From the IMG/VR virus record IMGVR_UViG_2519899835_000003: a stretch of 64,000 bases of DNA; one strand, 5' to 3'. This DNA comes from a virus. Taxonomy: Duplodnaviria > Heunggongvirae > Uroviricota > Caudoviricetes. Below the pieces are notes generated by a model. The model made no database searches, was not told the DNA's origin, and saw only the letters and a program-made list of their open reading frames with translations. How positions within the stretch are numbered: position 1 is the stretch's first letter; each line of letters starts with the position of its first letter. Made by a program: the position numbers and the translations under genes. Shown here in pieces: positions 39,876 to 49,600 of the stretch.

Positions 39876-40222
39876 GGGATTTTCTCGCTGAAAGGGGTTG
39901 TTAAGGAGTAACGGGTTCTTCGGGTTTGCTTCCGGCTGACTGACTGGCGCTGATTTTCTCAGCGGCCCTTTTATCAATCTGCCTGCACCAGAAATCGCGC
40001 ACAGCCCTGTACCCACCCGAAAGAAGATACAGCACACAGACCGCCGTACAGAAGTACAGCATCACCTGATGAATAAATGTCATAATTTCTTACCGTTATG
40101 GTTGACAATGAGAATTGTTTTCATTTAAAAAACCAATGTACGAAAGCATCTTTTCTTTACATTCTCCATTGGGATTACCTCCGCCAGCTTCCATTCCTGC
40201 CGCTGGCGGCTTTTTTTAGCAA

Positions 40223-42133
40223 TTATGCGGCTGCTCCAGCTTTGTTTGCTTTAACTTCCACCGTATCAATAAGTACAGGGTAGGTTTCTGCACTACCTGT
40301 AATATCCGTAATGACAAACCTGTTGAGTCCATTAGCAGTATTGGCCCATTTCACCAGGTCAAACGCCTGTCCATCCACACCATCGAGCACCGGAGTAACA
40401 TTAATGCTGTTACTGCCCTTAAATTTAAATGCAAGCGTATGCCAGTCATGGTCGAATGCGCCAAACGTGCCAAGTTCTTTTTGTTGATTAACTGTATGAT
40501 GGTATGCAACATTAATACTGGCTTTATCTGTCTGGACAAAGAAAGAACTCAGATGGCCTTCACCACCCTCACCCGGCCATTCCGCTATTCGCCAGTACAA
40601 ACCAAAGGCATACTTGTTTCTGGTTGTCTCAAGATTGACGTTTTCGGGGATTTTAAACCGGACAGCAATTTCCCCGCCTTTTTCCAGTAAAAGTTTTGCC
40701 TTGTCTGCAGCAATATCACAGTACATTGACCAGGATTTCGCGCTGTTATTTTTCTCAATTCGCAGAGCTTTATTGCCGCTGTCATCAACCAGTGTGCGTC
40801 TGCCATACATACCGTCCCAGCCATAAGGTTTCAGCTGATTGTCTGTAGCTTTTTTGGCATCGTAAAAAATTACAGACTCTGAGGTGGTAACCGGCCTGTC
40901 TGGAACAACCACCCCGGCAGTACCATTAACAAACGCAGAAGACTTACCCGCGCAGCTCAGAATCGCCGTTGCCAGACGGTCGGAAATAATCCCACGGCGA
41001 GCCCATGAACTGAAATGGCTCGCCCTGTCCTGTGACGTCCAGGTGGCTGAGCTGTCACGCCATTTCGAACCGTAATATCCGATACCCGGAATGTCCGGGT
41101 CTTCTTCCGGTTTGTTCGTCGGCACATTCACCCCGTTCTCATCCGTCATGAACGGTACGAAATGGATATTCTTTTCCGTTTTATTTTTATAGCTGCCGTA
41201 CACCGTCTGGTACGTGGATTCGTTCTTCTGCTTCCAGAAATACGTCGTGTCCCCGCATATCCAGGGAACACCGCCAGCAGAGCCACCGACGCACTGGCCT
41301 GCCATATCCGCCAGGTCTGCACGGAATTTATCAACCAGCGCACCAAACTGTGCGGCATGATTTGCCGGCGTACCGCCAAAATCAAATTCCCCCTGCATCC
41401 ACACCACGGCAAACAGCACATTTTTCGGGTTCTTCTCCAGTGCCGCTTTTGTTCGACCGATAAGGTCCTTATACAGCGGCTTGTCCACACCCCAGCGGGT
41501 TGAATTCTCCGAGGCACCACTCGCGTCACTGTATGTGCCATCAGCTCCGGTGGTGAACGCTGAACCACCACGACAGCACGGAACCAGCAGAATGCCCGCA
41601 TTCGCCGGTATAAACGGCAGCAGTTTTTTGGCGATATGCAGCCCCTGCCCCACGGTTCCGTACTGCCCCTTTGACAGGTCCGCTTTCGGATGGTTAAGAC
41701 GGCTCATGTCCTGCACATCATGCAGACAATGGTCCGCCGGAATGATGTCGTTATATTTGCATGCTGCACCGCCCGGTGTCACCGTACTGCGACGCGCTAA
41801 CTGTTTAATACGTGGATCAGGGCTGTCGAATGTATCCGGTAATGGCAGTCCCTCACCGTATGACATACCATTGGACTGACCAGCAAGCGCGATCACATAG
41901 TAATATTCTGGCGCAACAGAAGGCGCTGAGGTCGTCGGACGGTTGCCTGGCTCCTCTGGTGATGAGATGCTCCCCTCACTCACAACTGGCTGGATGAACT
42001 CCGCACCATAACCAGCTGTCGAAATCAGCGCACTACCATAAGGCTGCCACCCTTCCTTCAGTTTTTGAGTTATTCGTTTCGCAAGGTCTGACGGCGACGC
42101 CGCCCTGACAACATCATAGTGTTTAAATGCCAT
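40223..42133 (-). CDS. NanS-p-type prophage esterase (DUF1737 N-terminal domain + SGNH/SASA 9-O-acetyl sialate esterase domain)
   Basis: N-terminus MAFKHYDVVRAASPSDLAKRITQKLKEGWQPYG and YYYVIALAGQSNGMSYGEG serine-esterase block; position between Q and the lysis genes as in Stx phages. Confidence 0.7.
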   Translation of the reverse strand: MAFKHYDVVRAASPSDLAKRITQKLKEGWQPYGSALISTAGYGAEFIQPVVSEGSISSPEEPGNRPTTSAPSVAPEYYYVIALAGQSNGMSYGEGLPLPDTFDSPDPRIKQLARRSTVTPGGAACKYNDIIPADHCLHDVQDMSRLNHPKADLSKGQYGTVGQGLHIAKKLLPFIPANAGILLVPCCRGGSAFTTGADGTYSDASGASENSTRWGVDKPLYKDLIGRTKAALEKNPKNVLFAVVWMQGEFDFGGTPANHAAQFGALVDKFRADLADMAGQCVGGSAGGVPWICGDTTYFWKQKNESTYQTVYGSYKNKTEKNIHFVPFMTDENGVNVPTNKPEEDPDIPGIGYYGSKWRDSSATWTSQDRASHFSSWARRGIISDRLATAILSCAGKSSAFVNGTAGVVVPDRPVTTSESVIFYDAKKATDNQLKPYGWDGMYGRRTLVDDSGNKALRIEKNNSAKSWSMYCDIAADKAKLLLEKGGEIAVRFKIPENVNLETTRNKYAFGLYWRIAEWPGEGGEGHLSSFFVQTDKASINVAYHHTVNQQKELGTFGAFDHDWHTLAFKFKGSNSINVTPVLDGVDGQAFDLVKWANTANGLNRFVITDITGSAETYPVLIDTVEVKANKAGAAA

Positions 42134-42619
42134 GAATCCTCCCGGCCGGGATAATATTGTGAGTAAAATAAGGAGCGGGCTGAAGTCCGGAAGTTACAGG
42201 ACAATGGCAGAAGGGAGACTACAGCCCGCAATTCGAAAAAGGTCGCGCAGTTGCGCAGAGTGATTACTATGGGGTATTATTCGCCAGCTGAAATATTACT
42301 TCACGTTTCATTGTTCATTCCTTGCCGCCCGCGTCTCCCAGCGCGGGCTTTTTTGTCCATAAGAAAGCCCCTCCGGAGAGGGGCTGGAGAGTGGCGCTAT
42401 GTGCCATTGCATGGTGCCGGGTGCCTCCCGGTGAGTTCAGCCCGGTGCCACTAAACCCGCGTCATTCTCGTTTTGATAATCAGAGATTATACCGTCACCA
42501 GTCGCCCCTCCGCTCAGGGGGATTCACCATGCAGTTTTTTCTAACAAATTCTCATCCGGGCAGACAACATTCAACTGACTTAATTGTGAGGTATGTAACA
42601 TTCCCGTTGAACGGATACA

Positions 42620-42650
42620 AAAAAAGCCAGCCACCAGGGGAGGCTGGCAA
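42620..42650 (-). terminator. Rho-independent terminator in the Q-nanS intergenic region (approximate)
   Basis: Minus strand reads GCCAGCC-loop-GGCTGGC followed by TTTTTTT. Confidence 0.45.
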
Positions 42651-42829
42651 ACTCGTAGAGCAAAATGCTGTTACGCAAACTTCGTTACAGGGTTATCCTG
42701 CAATACTTAAAATATACAATATTTAGAAAACTAATAGTGCCATATGAGATTTTTAAGATTTTGTTATTAATTGCGGTCGTACCTTCCTTTCTGTGTACTT
42801 TCCGTATAGCTCACAGGATTCTGGGTACA

Positions 42830-42858
42830 AAAAAACCCGCGCATCGGCGGGTTCGGCT
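42830..42858 (-). terminator. Rho-independent terminator ~45 nt downstream of Q (approximate)
   Basis: Minus strand reads AACCCGCCGATGCGCGGGTT followed by TTTTTT. Confidence 0.45.
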
Positions 42859-42898
42859 GCGTGGCAATGTAACCACTCTTATCATGATATGCAGATTT

Positions 42899-43333
42899 TT
42901 ACGATCGTAAACTATTTTTTCGCTGATAAAATACAGAGGTTCTCCCTCCCGGCAATTCACGCTCAACATACCGATCCATCTCAAGCCTCACTCCCAGCAT
43001 CATCAGCATGCCTTCAACAATCCCCTCCGCTTTGTGAAGGCGTTTACCTATACAGGTGTCAGAGCACCCATGTTTCCGTGCCAGCGCCATGAACGTCTCC
43101 CCCAACACGTAGTAATCAACCAGCAAGTCATGCAGATCGCGATTGTTCCGGTAAAGGCGGGCTATGCACCCGCATATCACCATCGCATCATCGTCACAGC
43201 ACTGTGGACGTGATTTTACTTTTTCGGGGATCAGTCCCTTAAATCCGGCAGCAATGGGCGACCATGTAACATCCTCATAGTTATTTACCGCCCATGCCCC
43301 CCAGCGCTCAAGAACCTGCCGGATATCACGCAT
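42899..43333 (-). CDS. Late-gene antiterminator Q (DLP12 QuuD-like)
   Basis: [34 protein letters not shown]...[16 protein letters not shown] matches the QuuD-type Q family; start set at internal ATG overlapping ninH. Confidence 0.75.
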
Positions 43334-43523
43334 CAGTATCTTTACCCCATCCGCGATGAACCATAAGGACGCCATTGACGACGGCGTGCTTTTTCGCATC
43401 TTTATCATCAATGTATTTTCTGACTGTAGCACGATTGCAGTTCAGTATTCTGGCGACTTCTGTCTGATTTCCCCTGGTGCAGATCAGTAATTCAGGTATC
43501 GTTTGAATTTTAGCATTCATCAA
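43326..43523 (-). CDS. ninH: NinH-like protein
   Basis: ...[30 protein letters not shown]...[10 protein letters not shown] resembles lambda NinH; directly upstream of Q. Confidence 0.65.
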
Positions 43524-44965: not shown

Positions 44966-45649
44966 TCAGTAGCGATGCAGTGAAGGCGGCAACTCTTTGT
45001 TCTTAAGCCTTTCCCATGCCAGAAGGTTCGTCGGCCCGTCAGGCTCATAAATATCTATATCCCGCGTGTGATTAATTAAAACGCCCCTCGCCCTCCCGAT
45101 GATATACGAGAACTCATAGCCGTAGTCGTGGCATATGCCGGAATAGCCAGACTGAATCAGTTTTAATGCGGGATACAACTCACGGAACAATGCCTGTGAG
45201 CGGTTGGCATAATCCCACAGCCATACAAGGCTGTCTGTTTCTTTTGCGGAAAGCCCGTTGGGCTTCTTCTCTTGTTTGCCAGTATTTTTCTCGCACTGGC
45301 TGAAATAGCAGTCTTCCAGTTTTTCGAACACATCCCACGCCTGATCGGTTTCTAGCATTTTGGCGTGACGGGCTGCGCCTCGTTCTGTCCAGAGGATGAG
45401 GGAGCGAACGTTACGGGCAATTTTCACAGAGTAGTTAAAAGCTACTCTGTGCTTGAACTCACGTAAAGTTTCACCTTCAAGTTTGAAGAAGTGTTTTTCC
45501 TCAATGAAACGACCTTTGTTTTCGTGGTGATTCTGGCGAATACGAATAGCTTCTGTGCCGTAAAGGTGCGCCAAAAGTTCGGTAGTGATAACGGGGATCT
45601 GCTTGTAAGTAATCGTGGAGAGTGTTTCAACAGAGATTTGAGTTGTCAT
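44966..45649 (-). CDS. ORF6N-domain antirepressor paralogue 1
   Basis: N-terminal ~110 aa ([15 protein letters not shown]...[35 protein letters not shown]) nearly identical to the protein at 46568..47233; C-terminal domain differs. Confidence 0.6.
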
Positions 45650-45923
45650 AATGACGCCCTCGAGTGGTTTCTTAATAACTCACCACCGACGACGCCAATC
45701 GTCTGGTGGTGAACTGTGCAGGGTTGGCGTAACCGGGAAACCGACCGGCGCGGATCTCTCCGCCCCCACACAGCCCACCATAATTCAGATGTGCGCGTGC
45801 ATACGACAATAAAAAACACGCTCGCGGCGTGTATCTGTCGCGGTCTCTATCCAGGACGCCAATCCCGACGCCAGATTTTGCTGGCGCGTGAGGAATATAG
45901 CCCCGAATAAATCATCACGTCAA

Positions 45924-46567: not shown

Positions 46568-47233
46568 TCAGAATTCAAATTGTCTTGCCCGCAGGCTTTT
46601 CAGCATTGGCATGGCCCGCTGGATAACGGAACTTGACATGTCGAGACGTGTTACCTCCCTCAGTAGCGCGTCTCTGTTCTTCGTCACCATGTAGATGGTC
46701 TCAAACGCAATGTCATACAGCTTGTTCGTGTATGAGGAGTTCAGCTCTTTCATAATGGGATACAGGTGTTTGCTGATGTCCTGGGCTTTTTCCATCCAGA
46801 GCTGCATGTAGCAAAGGAGGATGATTTCTTCGGCTGTGAATTGTGGCTGAATCTGCGGCTGCTGTTCGGTTGGTGCTGTTTTTCCCTGGCTGAAATAGCA
46901 GTCTTCCAGTTTTTCGAATACCTCCCACGCCCGATCGGTTTCGAGCATTTTTGCGTGACGGGCTGCGCCGCGTTCTGTCCAGAGGATGAGGGAGCGGGCA
47001 TTTTTACCAACTAACCCGATTGTTTCGGGTCTGTTCTTAAACTCGCGTAATTCGTTTTTTTCAATTTTAAAGTAATGCTTTCCGGGCATGAATCGCGTCG
47101 TGTTGTTCAGAAAGTTATCAGAAATGTTTTTGATTTTTGTTCCGTAAAGGTGAGCCAACAGTTCAGTAGTAATTACGGGGATCTGGTTATAGGTAACAGG
47201 GGAAAGGTTTTCGACAGAAATTTGAACAGCCAT
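46568..47233 (-). CDS. ORF6N-domain antirepressor paralogue 2 (C-terminal domain shared with 1949..2578)
   Basis: Same N-terminal domain as 44966..45649; C-terminal EEIILLCYMQLWMEKAQ...LRARQFEF plus the identical downstream terminator hairpin shared with the left-arm gene. Confidence 0.6.
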   Translation of the reverse strand: MAVQISVENLSPVTYNQIPVITTELLAHLYGTKIKNISDNFLNNTTRFMPGKHYFKIEKNELREFKNRPETIGLVGKNARSLILWTERGAARHAKMLETDRAWEVFEKLEDCYFSQGKTAPTEQQPQIQPQFTAEEIILLCYMQLWMEKAQDISKHLYPIMKELNSSYTNKLYDIAFETIYMVTKNRDALLREVTRLDMSSSVIQRAMPMLKSLRARQFEF

Positions 47234-47575
47234 AATGACCTCGCGTTTCGATAATTTTTACCTCGCCACCGTCAGGTGCTAATCATCGTGGTGGCGAACT
47301 GTGCGGGGTTAGCACTACCGGTCGAAACATCCGGCGAGCCTTTCGGCTCCCCCACACAGCCCGCCATAAATCGCGAATGTGACTGTGCTTAGCGCATAAA
47401 AAAACCGCCAGCGCGGTTATGCACCGTTTCGATATCCGGGGTGCTAATCCCGACGCCAGGTTTTGCTGGCGCGTGAGGAATATAGCCCCGAACACGCGAC
47501 GTTGTCAAACTGATGGCATTGCAGATCCCTACGCAATGTAACACTATGTGTTATACATTAATAACGGAACAAAAA

Positions 47576-49199: not shown

Positions 49200-49412
49200 T
49201 TACTCCTCAGGTTCGTAAGCTGTGAAGACAGCAACCTCCGTCTGACCGGTTCGGATTCGTACCTCGCATAGGTCTTTCCTCGTTACCAGTGCCGTCACTA
49301 CGACGGTAATACAGATGACGATCAGGGCGACTAACATCGCCTTTTGCTGCTTCATAGCCTGCTTCTCCTTGCCTTTCGGCGCGTAAGAGGCTAACCTACA
49401 TGTGTCTAGCAT
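49200..49412 (-). CDS. hok: mok/hok type I toxin locus (Hok toxin = 49200..49355, in-frame Mok extension to 49412)
   Basis: MKQQKAMLVALIVICITVVVTALVTRKDLCEVRIRTGQTEVAVFTAYEPEE is a canonical Hok/Gef; upstream in-frame MLDTCRLASYAPKGKEKQA mirrors mokC. Hairpin plus T run downstream near 49,112-49,132. Confidence 0.8.
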   Translation of the reverse strand: MLDTCRLASYAPKGKEKQAMKQQKAMLVALIVICITVVVTALVTRKDLCEVRIRTGQTEVAVFTAYEPEE

Positions 49413-49600
49413 GAAATTGGCCTCAGATTAATGTTAGGCGTCTTGCAGGACGCGTAATGTTAACTGGGGTTTTTCTCTGTCTGCCTTACGGTGGCATGCC
49501 CGAGGCAGACAGCCTCAAGCACCCGCAGCAATTCTACTTAACTCTCGCTTTACCGCAAACCGTTTTTACCCGATATGGGAATTCCCATATCGTAATGAAT

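Follow-up and report, generated by a model that had tools for sequence, protein, structure and literature searches.

The 765 bp between the antiterminator gene Q and the nanS-p-type esterase gene (positions 42134-42898 of the window, by which we mean the whole 64-kb stretch of DNA that was analysed) run from the Q stop codon at 42901-42899 to the nanS-p ATG at 42133. Both genes lie on the minus strand of the window, which is the late strand of the phage. In late-strand order, the features recognized in the interval and at its borders (with the basis for each in parentheses) are as follows:

42899..43333, minus strand: antiterminator Q, short 144-aa type (ORF, Pfam and RefSeq)
42884..42911, minus strand: putative PR' late promoter, -35 TTTACG (42911-42906), 16-nt spacer, -10 TATCAT (42889-42884) (promoter scan)
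42829..42854, minus strand: t1, 8-bp hairpin followed by 7 T, +24 to +49 of the predicted PR' transcript (terminator-like site)
42620..42877, minus strand: StxS-L homologue, predicted PR'-to-tR' transcript of 258 nt (alignment)
42620..42704, minus strand: StxS-S homologue, the 3' fragment expected after an RNase E cut GU/AUU at +173, with rpoS seed ACCCUGUAACGAAGUUUG (alignment)
42619..42648, minus strand: tR', stem GCCAGCC/GGCTGGC followed by 7 T (hairpin scan; terminator annotation in AP005153)
42603..42619, no strand: unoccupied cargo (moron) junction, 17 bp, tGTATCCGTTCAACGGG (BLAST against three references)
42355..42560, minus strand: STnc100 sRNA (RF02076, which is EcOnc27/sRNA103 of O157 Sakai and is related to PasD) (Rfam)
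42162..42354, plus strand: putative convergent EcOnc42-type sRNA unit, terminator 42327-42348 followed by T6 (terminator, promoter-like site and homology)
42236..42257, minus strand: t4, small GC hairpin (TGCGCAACTGCGCG) with CCTTTTT after it, the final barrier ahead of the nanS-p leader (hairpin scan)
42134..42235, minus strand: nanS-p 5' leader, RBS GGGAGGA at 42146-42140 (alignment of phages)
40223..42133, minus strand: nanS-p-type sialate O-acetylesterase, the first late gene past the slot (ORF and Pfam)

The mechanical Q ORF, 42899-43432, extends back to a GTG at 43432, but its match to Pfam Phage_antitermQ (169 bits) covers residues 34-151, so the real protein is almost certainly the 144-aa form with its likely start at the ATG at 43333. 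The Q homologue in O104:H4 is annotated by RefSeq at 435 bp, and a 144-aa Q has been tied to the presence of the small RNA StxS (PMC7547250). On the other side of the interval, the esterase has SASA, DUF1737 and DUF6645 domains according to Pfam, and its 5' leader is almost unvarying across five aligned phages. The counterpart prophage in O104:H4, a 933W-like podovirus, lacks stx, has a capsid of the N4-gp56 type and carries a short Q in its late region. Beyond the nanS-p stop codon, a 139-nt spacer (40084-40222) that leads to a DUF1378 gene contains a plus-strand terminator-like hairpin with a T7 tail at 40197-40209; the PasA and PasC sRNAs have been placed between the esterase and holin genes (Zhu et al. 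2026, bioRxiv 10.64898/2026.05.13.724894). Elsewhere in the window there are two modules of isrK, C4 antisense RNA and c4-a1b1 target (Rfam gathering matches at 45702-45900 and 47287-47485, minus strand), each just upstream of an ORF6N/antirepressor-like ORF (44966-45649 and 46568-47233), a pattern suggestive of duplication, in the nin region, of an antirepressor control module of the P1/Gifsy type. The parallel locus of O104:H4 strain 2011C-3493 has one ORF6N gene, so the strain from which the window comes differs in this region. A sok antitoxin RNA (RF01794, 110 bits) is present at 49350-49524 on the minus strand, and a hokD toxin gene lies at the corresponding place in O104:H4.

A first-pass annotation of this DNA had reported about 770 bp without a tRNA, stx or a convincing ORF, and apart from the exact length our searches bear this out. 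Scanned over all 64 kb, the window yields neither a tRNA nor a tmRNA with ARAGORN and no match to the tRNA model of Rfam; as a positive control, the same two methods recover three tRNAs in each of the related loci L005, L001 and L006. The window thus lacks the ileZ-argN-argO tRNA block that Stx phages carry downstream of tR', and the two negative searches rule out a tRNA or degenerate tRNA in the interval (the topology of STnc100 is loosely cloverleaf-like). When the Stx1A/B and Stx2A/B proteins of the reference loci were compared with the whole window by tblastn, chance matches only were obtained (best E = 0.14), so the stxA and stxB genes that a Stx-converting phage has between PR'/tR' and nanS-p are missing. 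Dedicated tools detect neither a tRNA nor a short conserved coding gene in the interval; the conserved genes that it holds are genes for non-coding RNAs instead.

The -35 element of PR' sits in the last codons of Q, and in the promoter scan PR' is the sole promoter-like site on the late strand. Its start site is probably the A at 42877, seven bases past the -10, because the published distance between PR' and tR' then fits exactly (the 3' end at tR' was mapped 258 nt downstream of PR' in Sp5 and Sp15; Sy et al. 2020, PMC7547250). There are eight terminator-like sites in the region, against 1.6 +/- 1.3 in shuffles. Those on the late strand include hairpins at 42854-42833, 42650-42631, 42385-42366 and 42257-42244, and the plus strand has one good terminator, at 42327-42348. 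The first two are the late-strand terminators that had been noticed near 42,830-42,858 and 42,620-42,650. Two hairpins had also been assigned to the opposite strand; one of them is indeed the plus-strand terminator, but the other, at 42,362-42,385, is a late-strand element by its U-tail, namely the 3' hairpin of STnc100. The terminator t1 is strong-looking (8 bp and 7 U), yet the published StxS-L runs 258 nt; t1 is terminator-like but evidently leaks, and its role is putative.

The predicted PR'-to-tR' transcript aligns without gaps to StxS-L, with 94.6% identity to that of the Stx1 phage and 96.9% to those of Sakai Sp5 and phi296. Its RNase E motif GUAUU is at +172, the position published, and the 3' fragment (42704-42620) is the same as that of Sp5 save for two bases of the terminator loop. 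By direct count this processed fragment is 85 nt long (258 minus 173), as against the 74 nt given in PMC7547250. The seed ACCCUGUAACGAAGUUUG pairs with UGAAAUUCGUUACAAGGGG of the rpoS leader, whose sequence was verified in 5,417 genomes, at -17.4 kcal/mol. The seed-restricted duplex is just modestly above shuffles, 66 in 1000 of which match it, so the argument for the seed rests on its identity to that of the tested StxS and not on energy; in a global RNAduplex comparison of StxS with the rpoS leader, 188 of 500 shuffles were as good. The homologue has the same features as StxS (EcOnc15) of the Stx1 and Stx2a phages: a 144-aa Q directly upstream, location between PR' and tR', a length of 258 nt, GU/AUU at +173, a 3' fragment that is nearly that of Sp5, and an intact rpoS seed. 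It differs in that the window phage is without stx, so that the second published target, stx1B, is absent from the prophage. Binding of StxS to Hfq, its processing by RNase E and its activation of RpoS in vivo have been published only for O157 Sakai (PMC7547250), and some non-toxigenic phages are known to carry StxS (Sy et al. 2020, PMC7547250).

With its StxS homologue of about 258 nt and an STnc100 gene at 165 bits, the interval holds more than the hairpins and AT-rich DNA to which the first-pass annotation had confined it, and that part of the description is wrong. The Rfam covariance model for STnc100 matches over model positions 1-206 with 165.1 bits, where the gathering score is 47, and the gene has a late-strand terminator hairpin of its own (42385-42366). 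STnc100 is found at the same relative position, with 158-208 bits, in the window, phi296, the Stx1 phage, an Stx2a phage and Sp5. Zhu, Shabalina and Storz (2026, bioRxiv 10.64898/2026.05.13.724894) locate PasD/STnc100 in the stretch that separates Q from the gene for the sialate esterase. The window copy agrees with the known family in being full-length, in its core helices and in its site, with Q or the cargo on one side and the esterase gene on the other. In its terminator hairpin and 3' tail it has the allele present in phi296, the Stx1 phage and Stx2a_EC3283, not that of Sp5. The structure was assessed in 73 distinct copies, collected from IMG/VR and from the reference loci, whose median pairwise identity is 0.71. 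In this set 84.7% of the pair cells are canonical, compared with 40-48% when the partners are slid by 1-3 columns. The helices supported are the 8-bp closing helix, a 5-bp hairpin at 41-56, a hairpin at 103-128 with covariation at pairs 105:126, 109:122 and 110:121, and the terminator hairpin; since the copies were gathered by an exact 25-nt core, the hairpin of that core is invariant by construction. The 73 copies give no support to four further helices of the Rfam model, two short inner ones and two outer ones. Folding energy is not significant (z = -1.4), and the support for the structure is in the comparative counts. The promoter scan found no consensus sigma-70 promoter before STnc100 on the late strand; in Stx phages, promoters are provided by the cargo, which this phage is without. 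By eye there are weak hexamers near AATGTTACAT, for which we make no claim. In Sakai, EcOnc27 is Hfq-dependent and is bound in vivo, with bands of 235/247 nt (Tree et al. 2014 Table S2, PMC4104026); after a 135-nt offset between genome versions is allowed for, it corresponds to the 3' part of STnc100 in Sp5. Relatives of PasD have RIL-seq targets (bioRxiv 10.64898/2026.05.13.724894). Tandem copies of STnc100 occur in two phage contigs, L111 (cargo-less joint, copy 1, copy 2) and L058 (cores 275 nt apart).

The comparative evidence for STnc100 also bears on whether the interval encodes a small protein. Its longest mechanical ORFs, of 134, 81, 67 and 43 aa, are all read from the plus strand; candidates would be, for example, the 134-aa ORF at 42322-42726 (the "ORF b70" of the Stx1 phage) or the 43-aa ORF at 42132-42263. 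In their favor, "ORF b70" is annotated opposite STnc100 in AP005153, and at that place in EC4115 and M217 PGAP has a pseudogene of 126 bp, labeled "hypothetical protein". On the other hand, none of the four ORFs has a Pfam match; phage phi296 has three separate ORFs in place of the 134-aa frame, which in strain SJ3 is shifted by three 1-nt indels; PGAP has no annotation in the interval among the 25 identical genomes listed, and the fragment that it reports elsewhere is flagged as incomplete; and the conserved columns track the RNA helices, compensatory changes included. We therefore reject the plus-strand ORFs as protein-coding and consider a small protein here to be very improbable. The pseudogene lies antisense to the 3' part of STnc100 (1415-1540 of the O157 EC4115 locus, L129, and 1415-1540 of the M217 locus, L130), and like "ORF b70" of AP005153 it is probably a propagated spurious ORF. 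In M217 an 81-nt 3' fragment of STnc100 adjoins iraM.

Facing STnc100 on the plus strand is a putative sRNA unit that ends at the terminator 42327-42348. The 5' end of its RNA would be near 42162 if the promoter-like site at 42127-42155 is used, or near 42084 if the RNA is 271 nt long as it is in Sakai. The unit is antisense to the nanS-p leader and possibly to its RBS as well, and the stretch is about 93% identical to that of the Stx1 phage; the window, phi296, the Stx1 phage and another Stx2a phage have a common allele here that differs from that of Sp5. EcOnc42 of Sp15 is on the strand opposite StxS, is about 271 nt long on northern blots, has an intrinsic terminator nearby and is bound by Hfq in vivo (PMC4104026). 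When its Hfq peak is mapped by distance from the StxS 3' end in the older Sakai coordinates, it falls at 42190-42272 of the window on the plus strand, and the terminator (42327-42354) is 55 nt beyond. Homology to Sp15, the opposite strand and a terminator less than 200 nt from the Hfq peak place the unit in the EcOnc42/EcOnc08/EcOnc21 group. It is not AsxR or AgvB, for which (RF02703 and RF02702, respectively) there is no Rfam match in 42134-42420 even at E <= 10; in the Sp5 control AsxR is recovered with 88 bits, tail to tail with STnc100 on the opposite strand. What the unit shares with these sRNAs is position and orientation alone, that is, convergence tail to tail with STnc100 and a GC hairpin with a U-tail. 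AsxR and AgvB are 51-60 nt long with a conserved 3' region of about 42 nt, whereas EcOnc42, the Sakai homologue of the unit, is about 271 nt. Folding energy of the plus-strand RNA is not significant (z = -0.3). Weak Rfam matches to Qrr (23 bits), VqmR, snoZ13, anti-hemB and OmrA-B are far under their gathering scores, are driven by terminator hairpins, and were discarded. On the late strand, t4 is kept in all five aligned phages.

Comparison with cargo-bearing relatives locates the point at which cargo would be expected. Window positions 43450-42620 are 94.5-98% identical to the Q-PR'-tR' regions of the Stx1 phage, Sakai Sp5 (Stx2a) and phi296, and from 42602 downward (42589 for Sp5) the window is 83-97% identical to the DNA between cargo and nanS-p in these references. 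In place of the 17 bp at 42619-42603, phi296 has 473 bp (a methyltransferase remnant and three tRNAs), the Stx1 phage has 1494 bp (stx1AB with its promoter) and Sp5 has about 1790 bp (tRNAs and stx2AB). At the level of single bases, the shared left edge ends ...TTTTTT(A)TGT(A/C)CCGT and the shared right edge starts AATGTTA; only TCAACGGG (42610-42603) has no counterpart in the cargo-bearing relatives. STnc100 follows the cargo at the same distance from nanS-p in all of the references, and its start has been reported independently to lie 75 nt past stx2B. Between tR' and STnc100, IMG/VR contigs have spacings of 34 to 1827 nt, and the space is either empty or holds a methylase remnant, tRNAs, stx1 or other DNA. 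The slot is bounded on one side by the point where the tR' U-tract stops and on the other by AATGTTA, some 40 nt short of STnc100, and these boundaries provide a simple marker for typing the cargo state of lambdoid prophages. The earlier description of the interval as an empty cargo site on the backbone of a toxin-converting phage is right in that the flanks are those of Stx phages and that cargo in the relatives replaces the same 17 bp, but "empty" is misleading: about 720 of the 765 bp are taken up by PR', the StxS homologue, tR', STnc100, the EcOnc42-type sRNA, a fourth terminator and the nanS-p leader.

Such a joint might be the scar of a recent deletion, in which the lineage of this prophage shed the tRNAs (and stx, if present) of a cargo-bearing ancestor, a possibility that the first-pass annotation had raised as something for BLASTN to settle. 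The exact 45-nt junction is indeed rare and uniform, being present in 31 of 5,426 complete E. coli genomes (mostly O104:H4 and relatives, all 100% identical) and in none of 50,697 phage records, while parts of the interval are in about 2,500 genomes; moreover, the closest full-length relatives, phi296, TL-2011a and PPwrbA (96% identity), bear the tRNA block. Against this, strain SJ3 has the same joint with one substitution (TCAACAGG) in a 455-nt module that is 94% identical to the window, runs from t1 to inside STnc100, and has an unrelated ydfT-type Q upstream and a different esterase leader downstream. Homology between the window and the SJ3 prophage starts precisely at t1, which indicates that the t1-STnc100 block moves on its own, whatever the type of Q and PR'. 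The cargo-less joint also occurs in the IMG/VR contigs L070, L092 and L098 (G form) and L116 and L111 (A form); of 14 IMG/VR contigs with a StxS-type tR' and STnc100, these five have the joint, stx1AB is present in one, and a methylase remnant, tRNAs or other DNA occupies the site in the others. Cargo-less and cargo-bearing alleles differ in addition at the left edge, which is T7-GTATCCGTT in all of the former and T6-ATGTC(C/T)GTA in all of the latter; the junction flank likewise is T7-GTATCCGT when cargo-less and T6-ATGTCCGT in every cargo-bearing allele. Finally, the 8-nt linker matches neither end of any sampled cargo, and a search for a deletion donor by means of this linker in other cargo blocks gave none except L111, in which a second STnc100 follows the cargo-less joint. 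A deletion in this lineage thus appears unlikely; the shared left-edge signature and the SJ3 and IMG/VR occurrences favor a cargo-less module that circulates among phages, and the sequence data do not polarise the event.

We read the interval as a late-control region with an unoccupied moron slot, belonging to a prophage of the 933W-like (Stx-phage) type, and give this reading, together with the behavior in lysogeny and on induction proposed here, a probability of roughly 85%. Expression, Hfq binding, RNase E processing, activation of RpoS and Q read-through are predicted from published work on near-identical sequences. In the lysogen, constitutive transcription from PR' would start at about 42877 and stop at tR' (42648-42619), possibly in part at t1, to give the 258-nt RNA. 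Cleavage by RNase E at GU/AUU would leave a 3' fragment that is stable, binds Hfq and, by pairing with the rpoS leader, activates RpoS, as in the 97%-identical StxS of Sakai. Past tR' there is only the bare 17-bp joint, where relatives hold tRNA genes and/or stxAB, and then come two convergent genes that are probably for Hfq-type sRNAs, STnc100 on the late strand and the EcOnc42-type gene opposite it, where Sp5 has AsxR. Upon induction, Q would modify RNA polymerase at PR' so that it passes t1, tR', the terminator of STnc100 and finally t4, and goes on to transcribe nanS-p and the lysis genes.

STnc100 and its partner might, instead of being trans-acting sRNAs, be elements of the late operon that act in cis, a structured leader/terminator cassette and a cis-antisense RNA that silence nanS-p and the lysis genes in lysogens and are overridden by Q. 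Four late-strand terminators in series within 765 bp, the antisense relationship of the plus-strand unit to a nanS-p leader that is near-invariant in five phages, and the lack of a consensus promoter upstream of STnc100 are all in keeping with such a role. However, EcOnc27 and EcOnc42 in Sakai are bound by Hfq in vivo and form discrete bands of about 235/247 and 271 nt, respectively (PMC4104026), the PasD relatives have their RIL-seq targets, and AsxR of Sp5 acts in trans on FnrS (PMC4104026). We regard the cis role as doubtful, though cis and trans roles are compatible and not mutually exclusive.

In theory, the cargo-less joint T7-GTATCCGTTCAAC[G/A]GGAATGTTAC, which includes a small palindrome CCGTT-C-AACGG, could be an ancestral moron site that was never occupied, with the three sRNAs as the original "cargo". 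If so, the EcOnc42-type RNA, antisense to the nanS-p leader, would be a lysogeny lock that holds the expression of nanS-p and the lysis genes off, and the benefit to the lysogen would come from StxS alone, through activation of RpoS. This idea is speculative, and we think it quite improbable.

There are two practical consequences. The 765 bp with three sRNA genes are left blank or given spurious pseudo-ORFs by PGAP, so wherever intergenic DNA of Stx-like prophages seems empty it should be compared with Rfam and with the catalogues of EHEC sRNAs. In addition, strains of the O104:H4 type carry an extra StxS/STnc100 module that is free of toxin and could increase the dose of the sRNAs acting on RpoS.

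The arrangement of Q, PR', StxS, tR', moron slot, convergent sRNAs and esterase is already known, as are toxin-free phages with StxS. Like the PR'-qut-6S RNA-tR' region of phage lambda, the window region has what should be a constitutive late promoter with immediate termination in lysogens and Q-dependent read-through; it differs from lambda in the family and sequence of Q, in that the terminated RNA appears to have gained a role in trans, and in having several more terminators. A "moron insertion site" downstream of PR' with convergent sRNAs has been described in eight Sakai prophages (Tree et al. 2014, PMC4104026), and stxAB has been said to be "bookended" by Hfq-binding sRNAs, namely StxS and an sRNA dyad (2021 review, PMC7873438). 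The window has the same order of Q, PR', slot, convergent sRNA pair and nanS-p as this EHEC site, with STnc100 on the late strand as in Sp5, but its slot is without coding or tRNA cargo and the opposite-strand member of its sRNA pair is of the EcOnc42 group rather than AsxR/AgvB.
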